64,000 bases of DNA from the NCBI GenBank assembly GCA_021806925.1, contig JAKAPS010000001.1:1237-65236 (forward strand). Reading direction: 5' to 3'. This document shows positions 20,436-30,420 of the stretch, piece by piece (position 1 is the first letter of the stretch; the number at the start of each line of letters is the position of its first letter). The position numbers and the translations under genes are program-made. The notes below the pieces were generated by a model. It was not told where the DNA came from, ran no database searches, and saw only the letters and a list, made by a program, of their open reading frames with translations. Origin of the DNA: a bacterium. Its GTDB lineage: Bacteria > Patescibacteriota > Dojkabacteria > JAKAPS01.

Positions 20436-21413
20436 TTGAAAAACACAAAAACACTAATTATAAAAATTATATCAGTCACTTTGTTGTTGATTTTAGTATA
20501 TTTTATATCGAACCCACATATATTTAACAATAATAATATAGTTTCAAGAAAAACAAATAATGTTACAGTAGAAGCATATACTCCATTACAAAATTTTGAT
20601 ATTCAAACATGGAATAAAGAAGCATTTCTAACAAGCACTGGGTCCTTTACAATTGAAATACCCTACGATACTACAGTTACATTAAATAATGGAATATATA
20701 CATTAAGTGCTAAAGAGTATGGAACTGTAACAATATCTTCTACTATTGCAGTTGATGGTACAAATTCATTGCCATATGACGGATATATAAACAATATATT
20801 CAGAGCAAAGACAACCTATCTTAAGAACTCTAATGAAAGTATACAGATATATACAAAGAACAGTGTTATTTCATTTAACTTTTCTTCAAATGTTGAAAAC
20901 TTCGTGAAGGAATTTCTTACCACATTTATATATACAGAAGATTCAACTACAAATCCAATAGAAACGATTCTCTTTAAACATAATTTTGAGTCCAACAATA
21001 CATATACAATATTTTACCCTAGTAACTATTTCTTAGACCAGAAATATACAACTGGATATAGCCAATCCTGCCCAAACGAATCACTTGTAAAGCTCATAAA
21101 TTCAAACATGCAGAATATAATCACAATTGACTTTAATCCATGTGCAACCACACAATATGTAGTTACAGATTCAGTTATAAAGTATAACTCCATTGATATT
21201 TTTAAAGTGAGTAATAATGAATATTGTGCAATGAGCATGTCATCTCCACAAATGTCATATATTTCTTTAATTCCAGCAAGAAATTTGAACTTTGGATTTA
21301 ACTATACAGAATTCTTTGGTATTACACCAATCAAATTATGTCTATCATCACAAAATCCGTCGCAATATATACATGACTTAGAATACATTGGAACAAACAT
21401 GGATATATACTAA
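20436..21413 (+). CDS. Secreted or membrane-anchored hypothetical protein
   Basis: N-terminal signal/anchor helix followed by a hydrophilic Asn/Ser/Thr-rich body. Confidence 0.45.
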   Translation: MKNTKTLIIKIISVTLLLILVYFISNPHIFNNNNIVSRKTNNVTVEAYTPLQNFDIQTWNKEAFLTSTGSFTIEIPYDTTVTLNNGIYTLSAKEYGTVTISSTIAVDGTNSLPYDGYINNIFRAKTTYLKNSNESIQIYTKNSVISFNFSSNVENFVKEFLTTFIYTEDSTTNPIETILFKHNFESNNTYTIFYPSNYFLDQKYTTGYSQSCPNESLVKLINSNMQNIITIDFNPCATTQYVVTDSVIKYNSIDIFKVSNNEYCAMSMSSPQMSYISLIPARNLNFGFNYTEFFGITPIKLCLSSQNPSQYIHDLEYIGTNMDIY

Positions 21414-21458
21414 AAAATATTGACCTAAGAAATAATTTAATCAATAATTAATAATGAT

Positions 21459-23480
21459 ATGAAAGGGAAAATCTTGCTATTGTTTTTTATTCCCTTACTG
21501 TCTATTCTCTATTTTTTTAGACCATTTACAAATGTATACGGTGCTACAGTTTGCTCTAATACACCAAATGAATTAAATATAAGCAACCAATTTTTACAAA
21601 ATAACGTTTATGCAGGAGTTCCATTTCCTCTTGTTATTTATGCATGTAATTCAAGTGGTCAAATAGATTCTACATTTAATGGAAATGTTCAATTGACAGA
21701 TAGTACAACTACTCTCTACCCATCTAGTACAACTAATTTTGTCGATGGTGTATGGTCTGGGCAAGTTACAATAACTAGAGCAATTAATTCTGATCAAATA
21801 ACTGCATACAGTTCTCTTTATGGAAACGGTATATCATCATCATTTAATGTATTACCTTCAGAAAATGGAATAATTGAAACAATAATACAGGGTTCAAATC
21901 AATCTGGGGTAGTAGGAAGCAATCTTCCACAGGCATTAAGTGTTACAACAACTGACCAATTCGGGAATATAGTCTCAGGCGTTGGCGTCACATTTACAAT
22001 TGCTCCTCCACCTAGTGGTGCTACAGGACAAAGCCTTTCAAACTATAGTGCAATTACTAATTCCAGTGGTTCTGCATCAACAGTGATGACATTAGGTACG
22101 AAAGAAGGAATATACATTGTTACCGTTCAAGTCTCAACTGGATCTTCAAAAACAAGCTCACAATATTATGAGTATGCTAGTAGCGGATCACTTGCAGTGT
22201 TAAATATATCTCCAGCAAGTGCTATTGTTCCTCAAGGAGGAGTTATTAATTTTCAAGCAAGCGGACTTGATAAATATGGTAATCCAGTAACAATATCTTC
22301 ACCTGTTTGGTCAATATCTAATGGTGGAGGTACAATCGATCAAAATGGAAATTTTACTGCAGGACAAACAACTGGCATGTACTATAACACAGTTTCTGCT
22401 GCAATCGGAGGTATAGGAACTACAGCAACAGTTAATATAATTTCAGCACAAAATGGTTCAGGGAGTGGAACAGGAGCTACATCAACACCAACTCCATCTC
22501 CAACTCCTACTCCAGACTATGTAACTGTTACACCAACTCCAACACCAACTCCTGATTATGTCACATTAACACCTACTCCATCACCAGATCCTATCGATCA
22601 TGTGCTTATAAATCCAAATCCTGTAACCGTTTCTCAAGGTGAATCAGTGTCTATTACTGCAACTGCGTATGATGCAAATAATAATCCATTGAATGGAACA
22701 TTTAATTGGGTTATATCAACTGGACTTGGAACACTTAGTTCAAATTATGGATCAAGTGTTACTTTGAATGCTGGTAATACACCTGGAAATGGTACAATAT
22801 CAGTTTCTGCTCTTAATTCAACAGGATCAAAAAGTGATACTGTAAATGTAACAATAATTCCTAGCCCGCTCGCACAAAAATTACTTAATGATAATATTGG
22901 AGGAGGACACTTCTATATAAAAAACATAGGGAATCAGACTACAAACACTCCATTTCTTGTAATAGTTATGGCAGAAGATAACAACAATAATATAATTAAG
23001 AATTTTAATAGTCCTATTGTAATTGATGATACTACGCATACAATAACACCTGGTAGCGGAACTAATTTCATAAACGGAATATGGTCTGGAAACGAAGTTA
23101 TCACAACTCCACAGAATAATGATGTTGTATCTGTTTCTGGCGGTGGTATAACTGGAACAAGTAATGAGTTCAATGTTACTGGTAAATCACCTCCAAATAT
23201 ATTTTCAACACTATCAAGCAAAATATCAAGTGTTATTGTACAAGCAAATAGTGGAACAAATTCTAAATTTGATTCAAGAATAATTAGTGCTGGATTAATA
23301 TCTGGTCTTGGACTTCTAGGTAGCGCACTAAGTATTGGACTAATGTCTTCAAAGGGCTTAGAGGCAATTGGAAGAAACCCCTATGCAAGAGGGAAGATAC
23401 AAATCTCAATGTTAATATCAACAGTGGTATGTATCGGAATATCTATTGCAGGGATTGTACTGTCTATAGTAATAAAGTGA
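21459..23480 (+). CDS. Large secreted Ig-like (Big) domain protein with a Thr/Pro linker and a C-terminal ATP synthase c-subunit-like transmembrane hairpin
   Basis: Signal peptide, then repeated beta-rich segments resembling bacterial Ig-like domains. A TPTPSPTPTPDYVTVTPTPTPTPDYVTLTPTPSPDP linker follows. The C-terminal 65 aa (GLISGLGLLGSALSIGLMSSKGLEAIGRNPYARGKIQISMLISTVVCIGISIAGIVLSIV) align with F-type AtpE (GxGxGxG helix, ARQP-like loop, second helix). Confidence 0.55.
   Translation: MKGKILLLFFIPLLSILYFFRPFTNVYGATVCSNTPNELNISNQFLQNNVYAGVPFPLVIYACNSSGQIDSTFNGNVQLTDSTTTLYPSSTTNFVDGVWSGQVTITRAINSDQITAYSSLYGNGISSSFNVLPSENGIIETIIQGSNQSGVVGSNLPQALSVTTTDQFGNIVSGVGVTFTIAPPPSGATGQSLSNYSAITNSSGSASTVMTLGTKEGIYIVTVQVSTGSSKTSSQYYEYASSGSLAVLNISPASAIVPQGGVINFQASGLDKYGNPVTISSPVWSISNGGGTIDQNGNFTAGQTTGMYYNTVSAAIGGIGTTATVNIISAQNGSGSGTGATSTPTPSPTPTPDYVTVTPTPTPTPDYVTLTPTPSPDPIDHVLINPNPVTVSQGESVSITATAYDANNNPLNGTFNWVISTGLGTLSSNYGSSVTLNAGNTPGNGTISVSALNSTGSKSDTVNVTIIPSPLAQKLLNDNIGGGHFYIKNIGNQTTNTPFLVIVMAEDNNNNIIKNFNSPIVIDDTTHTITPGSGTNFINGIWSGNEVITTPQNNDVVSVSGGGITGTSNEFNVTGKSPPNIFSTLSSKISSVIVQANSGTNSKFDSRIISAGLISGLGLLGSALSIGLMSSKGLEAIGRNPYARGKIQISMLISTVVCIGISIAGIVLSIVIK
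22486..22590 (+). repeat. Imperfect tandem repeat DNA encoding the TPTPTPDYVT(V/L)TPTP linker
   Basis: ACTCCAACTCC...GACTATGTAACTGTTACACC units are visible in the sequence. Confidence 0.5.
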
Positions 23481-28745: not shown

Positions 28746-28758
28746 GAGAAAATATAAT

Positions 28759-30162
28759 ATGGCAGTACCAATAAAAATAAAAGGGATAATATCAGCTGTA
28801 AAAGGTGCTGTTGTTGATGTAAGATTTGTAGATCAGCTTCCTAAGATTAAGAATGCTCTATTGGTAGAACATATACACCAGAAAGTTGTACTAGAAGCAT
28901 TTGAACATTTACCTGGTCATATTGTTAGATGTCTTTCTATGAGTCCTACATCTGGACTTTCCATAGGTATGGAAGTTAGAGATACTGGGAATTCACTTGA
29001 AATACCTATCGGCAAAGAATTATTAGGAAGAATTGTTAATGTATTTGGGGATCCAGTAGATGGCCTTGGATCAATTGAAGCAAAAGAGACATCAATTATA
29101 CATAAGAAAAGTCCTTCCTTTGTTGAAACTAAACATTCAAGCGGTATTGTAACTACAGGTATAAAAGCAATTGATTTTTTAACACCATTCATAAAAGGAG
29201 GTAAAATAGGATTTCTAGGTGGTGCTGGAGTAGGAAAAACTCAGCTTGTAACTGAAATCATCCATAACACTATCATGAAGAACAAGTCCTACAGTGTATT
29301 TACTGGAGTTGGAGAAAGAACTCGTGAAGGAAACGAATTATTTATGTCATTAAAAGATACTGGCGTTTTACCAAATGTATCAATAGTATTGGGACAAATG
29401 AATGAATCCCCTGCTATGAGGTACAGAACACCTCTTACTGGTGTAAGTATAGCGGAGTATTTCAGGGATAAATTCAATATGGATATACTTTTGTTTATTG
29501 ATAATATATATAGATTCATTCAAGCTGGATCTGAAGTATCAACAGTTTTAGGTAGAATACCTTCCGAAGCTGGATATCAATCTACAATGATGAGTGAGCT
29601 TGGGGAAATTGAAGAAAGAATTGTATCAACTCCAAACGGAGCTATAACATCAATTCAAGCAATTTATGTACCCGCAGATGATTTTAGCGACCCTGCAATT
29701 CAAGCAATATTCTCATACCTTGATAGTGTTGTAGTTCTCTCAAGAAAAATAGCTCAACAAAAAATATATCCTGCAATTGACCCACTTGCATCAAGTGCAT
29801 CAGCAGATAGGGATGCACTTGGAGACAAACATGCAGACGTATTAATGGAAACATTGAAGGTTCTTGAAAGGTTAAGATCACTACAGAATATTATTGCAAT
29901 ATTAGGTGAAAGTGAATTAAGTGAGACTGAAAAAGCTACAGTGTCAAGAGGAAAAAAGATTATTAAATTCCTTTCTCAACCTTTTTACACAGCTGAGAAA
30001 TTTACAAATGTACCTGGTGTATATATTGAAGTTGAAGAAACTGTTGATGGTGTAAAAAGAATACTTTCTGGTGAATTTGATGATATGAGTGATGAGCCAT
30101 TTTATATGATAGGAAAAATTGATGAGTCTAAGGATAAATGGGCAGAAATAAAGAAAAAATAA
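28759..30162 (+). CDS. atpD: F0F1 ATP synthase subunit beta
   Basis: Walker [18 protein letters not shown]-like region and SD site AGGAG. Confidence 0.9.
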
Positions 30163-30420
30163 ATGGATGATAATCAAAAATTAAAGATAAAAATAGTTAC
30201 GCAGGACTCACTTCTTTTTGATGGTGAAGCAAATAGAATCATCGCTCCAGGACAGAAAGGTAGCTCATTTGCAATATTACCATTTCACACACCATTTTTT
30301 TCCAAGATTTATGAAGGATTTATTGAGGTTCATAATGAAAATGATGTTAAAAAATTTGAAAGTAAAAGAGGTATTATACGTGTAATTAATAATGAAGTTC
30401 TCGTTATAACTGGTATATAG
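30163..30420 (+). CDS. atpC: F0F1 ATP synthase subunit epsilon, beta-sandwich domain only
   Basis: 85 aa, the epsilon N-terminal domain motif IVTQDSLLFDGEA. The C-terminal helical hairpin is absent. Confidence 0.65.
   Translation: MDDNQKLKIKIVTQDSLLFDGEANRIIAPGQKGSSFAILPFHTPFFSKIYEGFIEVHNENDVKKFESKRGIIRVINNEVLVITGI

Follow-up and report, generated by a model that had tools for sequence, protein, structure and literature searches.

A putative second class of F-type ATPase operons in Patescibacteria that lacks subunit a and fuses the c-subunit hairpin to Ig-like domains

Introduction

In mycoplasmas, surface proteins are powered by F1-like ATPases of Type 2 and Type 3 (PMC12994834, PMC11864180). 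The Type 3 F1-like X0 ATPase (MSC_0618-0624 / MMCAP2_0575-0581) is required for the MIB-MIP antibody-cleavage system (PMC3369863, PMC12994834).

Here, we examined an F-type operon on the plus strand of a 64-kb stretch of Patescibacteria DNA (the window). The ORF calls and Pfam matches place genes for a b-like subunit, delta, alpha, gamma, beta, and an 85-aa epsilon in this order and, together with NCBIfam, bear out a first-pass annotation that had read all six as F-type. The same annotation framed the locus as the atp operon of its genome in degraded form. That framing did not hold, given the separate clade formed by its beta subunits and the canonical operon that coexists with this operon type in two genomes (L063 and L068). 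By sequence comparison, the locus is instead a member of a conserved, paralogous second class of Patescibacteria F-type ATPase operons. We named class A the operon type that encodes a protein with a signal peptide, Ig-like domains, and a c hairpin without a carboxylate, followed by b, delta, alpha, gamma, beta, and an epsilon with only the beta-sandwich, and that has no subunit a. Class B denotes the canonical Patescibacteria operons, atpB-E-F-H-A-G-D-C.

Results

The 673-aa protein encoded at 21459..23480 (+) comprises, from the N to the C terminus, a signal peptide, five Ig-like beta-sandwich domains (residues 38-132, 139-241, 245-328, 381-467, and 483-574), a flexible linker, and an F-type c-subunit hairpin (residues 603-672; 23265..23474, +). 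A Pro/Thr-rich linker (residues 331-374) separates the third and fourth Ig-like domains. Pfam matches were to Big_1, Invasin_D3, and ATP-synt_C. The AF2 model had a mean pLDDT of 72.7, with the hairpin modeled at moderate confidence in the monomer (pLDDT, 52 to 67), and Foldseek returned strings of Ig-like domains resembling S-layer proteins, which were the best matches, and complement C3. Relatives of the fusion protein comprised nine full-length homologues, 34 GTDB genomes, and 23 metagenome loci.

The C terminus of this protein matched PF00137 over residues 609-672 (30.6 bits; gathering score, 24) and an HMM of canonical c subunits (E = 4e-15), and phmmer aligned the hairpin without gaps to solved c subunits in the PDB (E = 1.6e-6). 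In this alignment, Ile659 (nt 23433-23435) falls at the position of Glu62, the ion-binding residue of Spirulina c. The packing motif of small residues in helix 1, SGLGLLGSALSIG, is retained, the cytoplasmic loop reads GLEAIGRNPYA, and helix 2 contains no Asp or Glu. The loop A-I-G-R-N-P was invariant in all nine homologues from the whole-protein search; in the larger sets this motif was the search pattern, so that loop invariance there is partly by construction. On this homology, we assign the 673-aa protein as the c subunit of the operon. The first-pass annotation had described the two genes upstream of the operon as encoding secreted proteins other than atpB and had separately noted a c-like hairpin without a carboxylate. 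Neither gene is atpB, and the carboxylate is indeed missing, but the hairpin is not a separate element: it is the C terminus of the 673-aa protein, which for this reason is the central part of the class A system. The c subunit is oriented with its N terminus outside, on the periplasmic side. Both this orientation and the signal peptide fit a model in which the Ig-like domains are extracellular.

Asp or Glu was found in helix 2 of none of 32 class A hairpins, compared to 41 of 41 free c subunits. A replicate set gave 0/23 for class A and 53/54 for free c subunits, bringing the two sets together to 0/55 versus 94/95. Column entropy in class A and canonical c was 1.18 and 1.22 bits, respectively, for helix 1 and 1.67 and 0.41 bits for helix 2. 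These values show an outer helix freed of sequence constraint and an inner, ring-packing helix still constrained. As judged from these columns, the ring-packing surface of class A c is kept and the surface for subunit a and the ion is released.

We searched for subunit a with a profile HMM of 37 atpB genes from Patescibacteria. It matched nothing at E<=10 in the called ORFs of the whole 64-kb window, and there was likewise no match in stop-to-stop six-frame translations of the whole window with filters off. No class A locus had an atpB within 10 kb, other than the copies in L063 and L068 that belong to a second, complete operon. By comparison, atpB was present upstream of c in every canonical locus whose sequence extends that far. 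No candidate membrane stator to replace subunit a was identified, and the genes inserted within the operons vary by lineage. The lack of subunit a reported at first pass is thus confirmed for the operon and the window. The accompanying suggestion of a reduced or rewired Fo is strongly supported: both subunit a and the c carboxylate are absent here and in ∼57 related loci, and F1 is catalytically intact.

The remaining genes of the operon overlap or abut one another, as in translationally coupled operons. The b-like peripheral-stalk protein (167 aa; 25156..25659, +) has one N-terminal transmembrane (TM) helix followed by a long charged helix or coiled coil. It had no Pfam match and only a match far below the cutoff to the NCBIfam subunit B model PRK13461 (E = 1.6e-7), but phmmer connects it to the canonical b of L044, L056, and L068, and the position of its gene is conserved in 30 class A loci. 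If the TM helices of b bound the ring directly, continuous rotation would be blocked. Delta (OSCP, 166 aa; 25665..26165, +) matched PF00213 with 42.9 bits (gathering score, 22.3) and gamma (319 aa; 27786..28745, +) matched PF00231 with 128.6 bits. Alpha (546 aa; 26162..27802, +) and beta (467 aa; 28759..30162, +) matched their Pfam families and exceeded the NCBIfam atpA and atpD cutoffs (531.7 versus 484.45 and 585.6 versus 462.85, respectively). In contrast, gamma (113.8 versus 194.45), delta (37.7 versus 57.5), epsilon, b, and c all fell under their equivalog cutoffs. Alpha ends in a low-complexity, acidic/Lys-rich tail of ∼40 aa. The catalytic motifs of beta are intact at this locus, and its DELSEED motif is altered to ESELSETE. 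Across class A, the P-loop and GER..E were kept in 24/24 beta subunits, and alpha had the P-loop in 26/27 and the Arg finger in 27/27.

Epsilon (85 aa; 30163..30420, +) matched only the beta-sandwich family PF02823, over residues 7-83, and has no C-terminal two-helix inhibitory domain. When 25 class A epsilons were aligned with 19 canonical ones, the class A proteins stopped directly after the beta-sandwich (median length, 94 aa versus 139 aa in canonical operons). Both the family span and the alignment agree with the missing inhibitory hairpin described at first pass. There was no split-off C-terminal domain, with just 60 nt between epsilon and a converging gene. It is important to note that a short epsilon alone is not diagnostic, since a few canonical Patescibacteria operons (L111, L113, and L116) also have epsilons of 83 to 94 aa.

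Comparison with related CPR/Patescibacteria atp loci, as suggested in the first-pass annotation, showed that the class A layout is conserved in ∼57 loci, drawn from about 34 Patescibacteria species genomes and from metagenomes (23 loci; synteny in loci L002-L037 and L086-L110). The fusion gene adjoins b in more than 40 of these loci from two independent collections, usually with a spacing of 1 to 90 nt. The gene set and order span deep lineages, with genomes labeled CPR2, CPR3, Berkelbacteria, and Microgenomates group. In a neighbor-joining tree, class A beta subunits, among them that of this locus, formed a clade apart from canonical Patescibacteria beta (bootstrap, 100/100). Beta identity was 51% between the classes and 69 to 72% within them (class A mean, 69%). 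The contigs of L063 and L068 each carry, ∼5 kb from the class A operon, a complete canonical operon as well (atpB-c-b-delta-alpha-gamma-beta-epsilon, with an epsilon of 145 aa), and the two beta copies inside one genome are 48 to 50% identical. Because class A is a paralogous second system that coexists with a canonical operon, copies of atpB and atpE at another place in the genome would not speak against the rewiring of this one.

An ATPase gene with AAA_14 and DUF4143 domains (23735..24982, +) lies between the fusion gene and b. It was absent at that position in every relative examined, where b comes directly after the fusion gene, and homologues sit elsewhere, downstream of epsilon in L002 and as a paralogue at window positions 43629-44897. 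Thus, from its distribution, we regard this gene as a lineage-specific insertion outside the system.

Directly upstream of the fusion gene, 20436..21413 (+) encodes a 325-aa membrane-anchored extracytoplasmic protein. A TM helix is predicted at its N terminus (residues ∼9-27), and three of its Cys are conserved. Its alignment with the genes that immediately precede the fusion in L004 (8260-9327) and L002 (2307-3434) runs from end to end. It matched no Pfam or NCBIfam family, a search of 5.8 billion proteins returned no further homologue, and the AF2 single-sequence model was unusable (pLDDT, 35). From its position and alignments, we classify it as a partner gene confined to this subclade.

Genetic linkage of class A operons to surface proteins of the extracytoplasmic side is seen in subsets of lineages, not in all. 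Of 36 class A loci, 12 have a WxL-cluster-like family within 10 kb, compared to none of 46 canonical loci (Fisher p = 1.5e-5), and in 8 to 9 class A loci the genes directly upstream encode dockerin, cohesin-like, and WxLIP_PGBD proteins. In this genome, where we read the 64-kb window and 10 kb beyond, the same five surface-protein families are clustered just past the window end, 37 to 42 kb from the operon; the cluster includes cohesin/dockerin proteins, a TM-anchored WxLIP protein, and WxL-cluster-like secreted proteins.

Discussion

Our best reading, to which we give a probability of roughly 0.55, is that class A encodes an ATP-hydrolysing, ion-uncoupled motor acting on surface proteins. In this motor, ATP hydrolysis by alpha3beta3, held by a b2-delta stator, would turn gamma-epsilon, with an epsilon that has no hydrolysis-braking domain. 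Gamma-epsilon would grip the conserved cytoplasmic R-N-P loops of a putative ring of c hairpins, each carrying ∼600 extra N-terminal residues. From the periplasmic N terminus of each hairpin, a flexible linker would lead to ∼570 residues of Ig-like domains outside the cell. The output would be torque or conformational work at the cell surface, on or together with partner surface proteins, and no ions would be moved because subunit a and the carboxylate are both absent. Candidate partners are the 325-aa anchored protein in this subclade and, in other lineages and ∼40 kb away here, cohesin/dockerin proteins, the TM-anchored peptidoglycan-binding WxLIP protein, and the WxL-cluster-like secreted proteins. 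The peptidoglycan-binding partner may also serve as the membrane anchor of a stator that has no subunit a. The parts of this proposal differ in strength. Class A is very likely a distinct, conserved class that is not ion coupled, and it is probably a dedicated ATP hydrolase. Mechanical action on surface proteins is a more tentative proposal, at slightly under even odds, and true continuous rotation of the extracellular domains is doubtful. The locus is not a broken ATP synthase, and, if the motor reading is true, ATP is probably spent moving surface proteins rather than made.

One departure from this reading would be an ordinary F1Fo ATP synthase with a split operon, in which atpB and atpE lie elsewhere in the genome and the Ig-c fusion is an unrelated surface protein found upstream by chance. 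The sequence read here, the window plus 10 kb, is one part of the genome, alpha and beta exceed the equivalog cutoffs, and L063 and L068 do have atpB and atpE nearby. However, those copies are part of another complete operon, which has alpha, gamma, beta, and full-length epsilon genes to itself, and thus they do not complete the class A set. The fully supported beta clade, the repeated abutment of the fusion gene on b, the low scores of the other five subunits, and the lost constraint in helix 2 of the fused c also make a split operon improbable. It is more improbable still that the locus is a decaying, nonfunctional remnant. Patescibacteria have reduced genomes, this operon has lost subunit a, the c carboxylate, and the C-terminal domain of epsilon, and the AAA_14 gene interrupts it here. 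But all seven reading frames are intact at this locus and in most of the ∼57 loci, the catalytic motifs are kept, the constraint on the c inner helix and loop equals that in canonical c, the class extends across deep lineages at its observed beta identity, and the tight gene spacing is that of a coupled operon.

Other readings retain a working system. One or a few fused c protomers might enter a canonical c-ring in genomes that have both systems, adding surface domains to a normal ATP synthase. The two operon types share one contig in L063 and L068, the gapless alignment of the hairpin to canonical c would permit it, and a carboxylate-poor c1 occurs in the mixed ring of Acetobacterium woodii (PDB 4bem). 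Such decoration is nevertheless improbable, as the fusion gene is always accompanied by its own b, delta, alpha, gamma, beta, and epsilon, which would be needless for decorating another complex, and no canonical operon lies within 10 kb of most class A loci. Alternatively, the system may be nonrotary: the hairpin may be a mere membrane anchor that places an S-layer- or adhesin-like Ig protein over an F1 that acts as a conformational switch or an assembly or unfolding ATPase, or the ring may be locked to b so that ATP hydrolysis drives only limited twisting strokes. The lack of a membrane stator partner among the neighboring and intraoperon genes and the S-layer resemblance of the Ig-like string are in keeping with these variants, as is the current model of the mycoplasma systems, which is one of force transmission and not of free rotation (PMC12994834, PMC11864180). 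Against them, class A keeps every link of the rotary coupling chain (gamma, the epsilon sandwich, the c loop and ring-packing helix, b, and delta), which is hard to explain without torque. Taken jointly, we consider these variants unlikely, although they overlap with rotary readings and are inseparable from them by sequence alone.

Compared to canonical F1Fo, including class B, the system at this locus has an identical gene order from c to epsilon, alpha and beta that pass the equivalog cutoffs, delta, gamma, the epsilon sandwich, a b-like stalk, and a c hairpin with an R-N-P loop and a Gly-rich helix 1. It differs in having no subunit a, a hydrophobic residue in place of the c Glu, ∼600 extracellular residues fused to c, no epsilon C-terminal domain, an altered beta DELSEED, and a separate beta clade. 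The N-ATPase is also a second, laterally spread F-type operon alongside the canonical one, but it has kept subunit a and a c that binds ions, it includes atpQ and atpR, and its order is atpDCQRBEFAG (Dibrova et al. 2010, PMC2881411); every alt_F1F0 model was below its cutoff at this locus.

The genes linked to class A resemble the WxL/Csc clusters of Firmicutes (PMC1534035, PMC10599100) in encoding small and large secreted proteins with a common C-terminal domain and a TM-anchored protein with a DUF916/WxLIP peptidoglycan-binding domain. The Pfam WxL domain itself had no match in these genes; only WxLIP_PGBD reached threshold, at a borderline 27.3 to 30.3 bits. Further, cohesin- and dockerin-like proteins are added in the class A-linked set. 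From the open-access text, we know of no ATPase linked to the Firmicute WxL clusters.

In the open-access literature, the closest counterparts of class A are the mycoplasma F1-like X0 ATPases. The Type 2 G1-ATPase of Mycoplasma mobile, the gliding motor, is likewise an F1-derived mechanical motor for surface "legs" (PMC8406192, PMC11864180). Alpha and beta from the window, however, score below the MMOB1660 and MMOB1670 cutoffs (365 versus 600 and 441 versus 850), beta has no N-terminal dimerization domain, and b, delta, and a recognizable c are present here. The Type 3 system belongs to another phylum and differs further: b and delta, retained in class A, are absent from it, its 12-TM protein and small cytosolic protein are missing here, and the scores of alpha and beta lie far under the cutoffs for MSC_0619 and MSC_0618 (284 versus 520 and 410 versus 570) but over those for canonical atpA and atpD. 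The two-helix C terminus of class A is a c hairpin (PF00137), whereas that of the mycoplasma protein has no detected homology. In both cases, nonetheless, a second, paralogous, F-type-derived seven-gene cluster stands beside a canonical F1Fo in a small-genome, host-dependent bacterium, encodes alpha-, beta-, gamma-, and epsilon-like subunits without subunit a or an ion-binding c, is linked to surface proteins, and is thought to transmit ATP-driven force across the membrane.

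Gene content of the operon

ORF calling and Pfam searches placed all genes of the operon on the forward strand of the window. It begins with a 325-amino-acid (aa) protein that has a single N-terminal transmembrane (TM) helix and no family assignment (20436 to 21413), followed by a 673-aa protein with Pfam PF00137 at its C terminus (21459 to 23480; here, the fusion protein) and a gene with Pfam domains AAA_14 and DUF4143 (23735 to 24982). The F-type genes then run in the order b-like subunit (25156 to 25659; 167 aa, one TM helix and a charged coiled coil), delta (25665 to 26165; Pfam OSCP), alpha (26162 to 27802; Pfam and NCBIfam atpA), gamma (27786 to 28745; Pfam ATP-synt), beta (28759 to 30162; Pfam and NCBIfam atpD), and epsilon (30163 to 30420; 85 aa). 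The b and delta genes are separated by 5 nt, delta and alpha overlap by 4 nt, alpha and gamma overlap by 17 nt, gamma and beta are 13 nt apart, and beta and epsilon abut with a 0-nt gap. The assignment of b is based on sub-threshold matches to the NCBIfam subunit B models (E value, 1.6e-7), on phmmer matches that connect it with the canonical b of relatives, and on its conserved position.

The window (∼29% G+C) reads cleanly with genetic code 11. Alpha and beta scored above their canonical NCBIfam cutoffs (atpA, 531.7 versus 484.45; atpD, 585.6 versus 462.85), and OSCP, ATP-synt (gamma), and DE_N passed their Pfam gathering scores, while b, c, delta, gamma, and epsilon were all under their NCBIfam equivalog cutoffs. 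The catalytic features of the alpha3beta3 head (P-loops, catalytic Glu, and Arg finger) are present. A promoter and terminator scan of the operon gave counts no higher than the shuffled expectation, and Rfam and tRNA scans of the window found a single tRNA-Ala and nothing more.

The AAA_14/DUF4143 gene has a paralogue in the window (43629 to 44897, reverse strand). Only in this genome does such a copy (23735 to 24982, forward strand) separate the fusion gene from b, and a homologue lies downstream of epsilon in L002, a locus from a close relative (loci of related genomes and metagenomes carry L numbers). This pattern looks like a mobile or selfish family landing near the operon.

A c subunit hairpin fused to extracellular domains

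PF00137 covers residues 609 to 672 of the fusion protein with 30.6 bits (gathering score, 24), and a hidden Markov model (HMM) of canonical Patescibacteria c subunits matched the same C terminus with an E value of 4e-15. A phmmer search against the PDB returned c subunits alone, in gapless alignment. Ile659 (nucleotides 23433 to 23435) aligned to the ion-binding Glu62 of the Spirulina c subunit (2wie), in agreement with the first-pass annotation, which had described a c-like hairpin lacking the carboxylate. That annotation had also read the two genes upstream of the F-type series as secreted proteins and not atpB; neither is atpB, but the second of them (21459 to 23480) itself carries the c hairpin. 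This C terminus is the only c-like sequence in the window, where no free c of ∼70 to 90 aa was found, and the canonical-c HMM found no free-standing c in related fusion-type loci.

An AlphaFold2 model of the fusion protein built with nine homologues (mean pLDDT, 72.7) has an N-terminal signal helix, three beta-sandwich domains (residues 38 to 132, 139 to 241, and 245 to 328), a disordered Pro/Thr-rich linker (331 to 374), two further beta-sandwich domains (381 to 467 and 483 to 574), and, after a low-confidence linker, a helical hairpin (603 to 636 and 641 to 672). Compared with the PDB by Foldseek, this model matched nothing more specific than generic tandem Ig-like domains, for example those of S-layer proteins and complement C3. 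The c subunit of solved F-type enzymes has a periplasmic N terminus and a loop that faces F1, so a signal peptide, extracellular domains, and a c hairpin are topologically coherent in one chain. A full-length profile of the fusion protein gave 2,091 matches at an E value of ≤1e-30 in a library of 1.84 billion representatives, a number unusable for counting the family because it is dominated by giant Ig-repeat proteins. The same Ig-like domain types recur, in up to 66 repeats, in proteins of 2,000 to 7,600 aa in the representative library (matches P0142 to P0290), and thus the arms of the fusion protein are built from a widely used surface-protein module.

Absence of subunit a

An atpB HMM was built from 37 atpB genes located upstream of canonical c in related genomes; it recovered all 40 canonical atpB genes with E values of 1e-77 to 1e-134. 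It had no match at an E value of ≤10 to subunit a (PF00119) among the called ORFs of the window, and none in the stop-to-stop six-frame translations of the window searched with filters off (--max). The operon therefore lacks subunit a, as first proposed from the sequence alone. The companion claim, that epsilon consists of the beta-sandwich only, also held: PF02823 is the sole match of the 85-aa protein, and the C-terminal domain is absent. No atp genes were found within 10 kb past either end of the window, which spans nucleotides ∼1374 to 65373 of a contig of 206,887 nt.

A conserved class of operons in Patescibacteria

A whole-protein search recovered eight homologues of 630 to 720 aa with the same architecture as the fusion protein. 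For two of these protein matches, P0002 and P0004, the genomic context was fusion-b-delta-alpha-gamma-beta-epsilon with no subunit a, an epsilon of 94 and 78 aa, and a distance from fusion gene to b of 9 and 1 nt, respectively. We call such fusion-type operons without subunit a class A and canonical operons with a free c class B. A scan of one genome per GTDB species added 34 class A loci with a full-length fusion protein (L004 to L037; 629 to 2,589 aa) and yielded 46 class B loci with a free c of ∼71 to 80 aa; the class A records are labeled CPR2, CPR3, Berkelbacteria, Microgenomates group, and Patescibacteria, although some TPA labels (e.g., "Pseudomonadales") are evidently wrong. An independent scan of JGI metagenomes repeated the split, with 23 class A and 46 class B loci. 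Comparison with the atp loci of related CPR/Patescibacteria genomes thus showed the layout of the window to recur in ∼57 class A loci, none of them with atpB within 10 kb.

The two classes differ in several features. Class A has the order fusion-b-delta-alpha-gamma-beta-epsilon, and class B has atpB-c-(b)-delta-alpha-gamma-beta-epsilon. The atpB HMM found nothing at an E value of ≤10 within 10 kb in any class A locus, either in called ORFs or in six-frame translations, whereas in class B atpB stands upstream of c wherever the sequence reaches; a fusion gene and atpB occurred together in 0 loci. Asp or Glu is present in helix 2 of c in 0/32 and 0/23 class A sequences (0/55 hairpins) and in 41/41 and 53/54 class B sequences, and the lone exception, L123, is a class A gene cut short by the edge of its contig. 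The loop of c reads RNP[FYLM]A in class A and RNPEA in class B. Median lengths in class A and class B are 94 and 139 aa for epsilon, which in class A stops right after the sandwich in alignment, and 550 and 509 aa for alpha, which in class A bears variable low-complexity tails. The window operon is of class A, with a carboxylate-less fusion c, b, delta, alpha, gamma, beta, a short epsilon, and no atpB; its beta subunit falls in the class A clade and shares 76 to 77% identity with those of L002 and L004, against no more than 52% with any canonical beta.

A short epsilon was considered as a diagnostic of class A and rejected. Three JGI loci (L111, L113, and L116) have a canonical atpB-c-...-beta arrangement with an epsilon of 83 to 94 aa and a somewhat longer c of 88 to 104 aa, and so the epsilon C-terminal domain has been lost independently in otherwise ordinary Patescibacteria F1Fo enzymes.

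Variants of the class A layout were also seen. In L010 (5113 to 14723) and L011 (5251 to 14809) the operon is split and permuted, with gamma-beta-epsilon first and fusion-b-delta-alpha ∼2 kb further on. CPR3-type relatives (L025, 5195 to 12910; L026, 4652 to 12421; L097; L098; L023) encode giant fusion proteins of 1,296 to 2,589 aa whose C terminus is again the hairpin without a carboxylate. Two of these loci, L025 and L026, have the fusion gene separated from the b-like gene by genes for an ABC ATPase and a 4-TM permease; the permease has a large TM1-TM2 loop and is possibly FtsX/MacB-like. Genes inserted in class A operons differ by lineage, and those that flank the operon in the window do not recur in other loci; a search within and next to class A operons gave no recurrent membrane protein that could take the place of subunit a.

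Constraint kept and lost

Helix 1 of c, which forms the inner ring and carries the Gly-rich packing motif, has a per-column entropy of 1.18 bits in class A and 1.22 bits in class B. For helix 2, which forms the outer ring and carries the ion site and the interface with subunit a, the values are 1.67 and 0.41 bits. Constraint on helix 1 is thus equal in the two classes, and on helix 2 it is mostly gone in class A. Nine homologues that were found without any motif all have the loop A-I-G-R-N-P; in the larger sets its invariance is by construction, because the loop was the search pattern.

In class A beta, GGAGVGKT and GER..E are present in 24/24 sequences, and DELSEED has become DELSExEK. Of 27 class A alpha sequences, 26 keep the P-loop, and all 27 keep the Arg finger, S-x-S-R-x-G. 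Judged from these motifs, the catalytic machinery of F1 is intact in class A.

Paralogy and relation to the canonical operon

In a tree of 52 beta sequences (460 columns), class A separated from class B with neighbor-joining bootstrap support of 100/100, and one beta sequence from Ktedonobacteria fell within class B. Beta sequences are on average 69% identical inside class A, 72% identical inside class B, and 51% identical across the two classes. Two loci, L063 (CAZVUJ010000004.1) and L068 (CAYYKL010000011.1), have both operon types on one contig: a class A alpha-gamma-beta-epsilon with an epsilon of 104 to 108 aa and, ∼5 kb downstream, a complete atpB-c(Glu)-b-delta-alpha-gamma-beta-epsilon with an epsilon of 145 aa. 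The two beta copies within these contigs are 48 to 50% identical, and L020, from the same metagenome-assembled genome (MAG) as L068, ends with fusion-b-delta.

These double operons imply that at least one lineage has class A in addition to a canonical system, and they identify it there as a paralogue, not as the cell's only ATP synthase in decay. The first-pass annotation had held that its reading would fall if atpB and atpE were found elsewhere in the genome. That does not follow: L063 and L068 carry class A beside a full canonical operon, and since class A is an additional system there, such genes elsewhere would not undo the finding. Its suggestion of a reduced or rewired Fo is partly supported but needs to be recast, with class A as a paralogous, probably ion-uncoupled, and surface-linked F-type ATPase.

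Surface-protein neighbors

The 325-aa protein (20436 to 21413) can be aligned over its full length with the protein encoded just ahead of the fusion gene in L004 and in L002, the two closest relatives of the window. An N-terminal TM helix and three conserved Cys residues are common to all three proteins; homology searches found no homologue beyond these two loci, and an AlphaFold2 run on the 325-aa protein without an alignment gave no usable model (pLDDT, 35).

In a subclade that includes Berkelbacteria- and CPR2-labeled genomes, four genes precede the fusion gene; they encode two cohesin-like proteins, a TM-anchored protein with a WxL-interacting-protein peptidoglycan-binding domain, and a Big_6 and dockerin protein. 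Downstream of the operon, 12 loci encode secreted proteins of 364 to 407 aa and 770 to 913 aa with a common C-terminal domain. None of these surface families was seen near any of the 46 class B loci of the genome scan; for the secreted WxL-cluster-like proteins, the counts are 12/36 class A and 0/46 class B loci (Fisher P = 1.5e-5).

All five surface families also occur in one cluster of the window genome, just past the window end and on the minus strand with respect to the window (L084, Logan SRR13206618_4026; 923 to 6167, window equivalent ∼67.5 to 72.8 kb), where they adjoin a TMEM260-like glycosyltransferase. The cluster encodes a 353-aa secreted protein with a WxL-like C terminus, a 311-aa WxLIP_PGBD protein anchored by a TM helix at its C terminus, a Big_6 and dockerin protein of 415 aa, and two cohesin-like proteins, one of 167 aa and one of 370 aa that has a TM helix and a charged tail in the cytoplasm. 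Each of the five families is homologous to genes that directly flank Ig-c-fusion operons in other lineages. WxL clusters of Firmicutes (PMC10599100) likewise combine small and large secreted proteins that have a common C-terminal domain with a DUF916-type anchored protein; the WxL domain had no match in the class A-linked secreted proteins, and the likeness is therefore a resemblance only.

Other genes in the window

Several other clusters were observed in the window. Precomputed Pfam annotation of L084 indicates a type IV secretion system (T4SS)- or conjugation-like cluster at ∼52883 to 60606 (forward strand), with PrgI-like, TraC-like, P-loop_TraG/DUF87 ATPase (two copies), and T4SS_pilin genes. 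On the reverse strand, converging on epsilon, genes for a RimK-like ATP-grasp protein, an ATPgrasp_ST protein, and a 7TM_transglut membrane protein (30857 to 33858) resemble a cluster for peptide ligation or poly-amino-acid modification; between them and epsilon lies the gene for a 4-TM protein of 132 aa and no family (30481 to 30879). Upstream of the operon on the opposite strand are a histidine kinase (HATPase_c) and a response regulator (17657 to 19155) and a 353-aa protein of no family that diverges from the operon start (19321 to 20382). An RloB-like gene and a PhdYeFM-type antitoxin-like ORF are found at 16913 to 17679, and the latter overlaps, on the opposite strand, the tRNA-Ala CGC gene (17337 to 17410, reverse strand).

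Proposed mechanism

The most far-reaching reading is that class A is an F-type-derived, ATP-driven rotary motor of Patescibacteria, in which a c-ring that no longer carries ions would spin or torque a crown of 8 to 15 Ig-like arms outside the cell, with the stator fixed to the cell wall. We consider this reading tentative and give it a probability of roughly 0.3. On the more general reading, which we favor, the complex would hydrolyze ATP without the brake of the epsilon C-terminal domain, hydrolysis would turn or strain a ring of fused c subunits, and that motion or strain would perform mechanical work on the cell surface. It would move no ions, translocation being disfavored by the sequence because there is neither a carboxylate nor a subunit a. 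The proposal draws on the retained seven-gene set with its catalytic head and central and peripheral stalks, as read from sequence; on a c hairpin that keeps the ring-packing helix and the F1-facing loop without an ion site or outer-face constraint; and on the extracellular placement of the N-terminal Ig-like domains, the lack of subunit a, and the linkage to surface proteins. Prompted by the WxLIP_PGBD neighbor, we speculate that the stator anchor might be a peptidoglycan-bound partner analogous to flagellar MotB.

If the most far-reaching reading is true, class A would be a new type of prokaryotic surface motor with which cells attach to their hosts, move on them, or manipulate them. To the rotary ATPase field it would offer a naturally occurring F-type enzyme in which rotor, stator, and head are kept, ion coupling is discarded, and the rotor is tied to the outside, and class A provides a clean test of the roles of the c-ring besides ion carrying. 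For CPR biology it points to an energized surface apparatus in episymbionts, in which host attachment is the central unsolved problem.

Comparison with known systems

We found no account of the Patescibacteria fusion-type arrangement in the open-access full-text literature. Surveys count alpha, beta, and gamma and ascribe a missing a or c to genome incompleteness (PMC11738941), and reviews take the complex V of Patescibacteria as standard (PMC13293708). Class A operons are currently annotated as ordinary ATP synthase, with one homologue labeled "F-type H+-transporting ATPase subunit c," and metabolic reconstructions may consequently credit these lineages with an ATP synthase or proton pump that is absent. 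Unlike canonical F1Fo, class A has no subunit a encoded within 10 kb, no ion-binding Asp/Glu, and no free c.

Membership in described F1-derived families was rejected. N-ATPases have atpQ and atpR in the order atpDCQRBEFAG; the gene order in the window differs, and TIGR03324, TIGR03305, TIGR03323, and TIGR03322 all scored below their cutoffs. The models for the mycoplasma F1-like ATPases also failed, both for Type 3 alpha (MSC_0619-type; NF045936, 284 versus 520) and beta (MSC_0618-type; NF045934, 410 versus 570) and for the Type 2 G1-ATPase (MMOB1660/MMOB1670; NF045863, 365 versus 600; NF045858, 441 versus 850). Type 3 has a 12-TM protein and a small cytosolic protein and lacks b and delta; the window has neither protein, and b-like and delta subunits are present. 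Compared by description, the topology of the fusion protein fits the account of Type 3 in PMC12994834.

The mycoplasma F1-like ATPases are nevertheless the closest systems. Each is likewise a second cluster of seven genes that derives from F1 and has neither a nor c. Type 2 powers gliding, and the MIB-MIP surface system, which cleaves antibodies, depends on Type 3 (PMC3369863, PMC12994834, PMC11864180). Class A differs from them in keeping b and delta, in its recognizable c hairpin, in the absence of the 12-TM and small cytosolic proteins, and in the failed family models, and it is therefore not a member of the Type 2 or Type 3 families. By analogy, it plausibly works as they do. The mycoplasma counterparts may in turn be unrecognized c-subunit fusions of the same kind, in which case F1 plus a surface-exposed c fusion would be a recurrent solution in reduced, host-dependent bacteria. 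Class A would thereby belong with the F1-derived ATPases in non-bioenergetic use.
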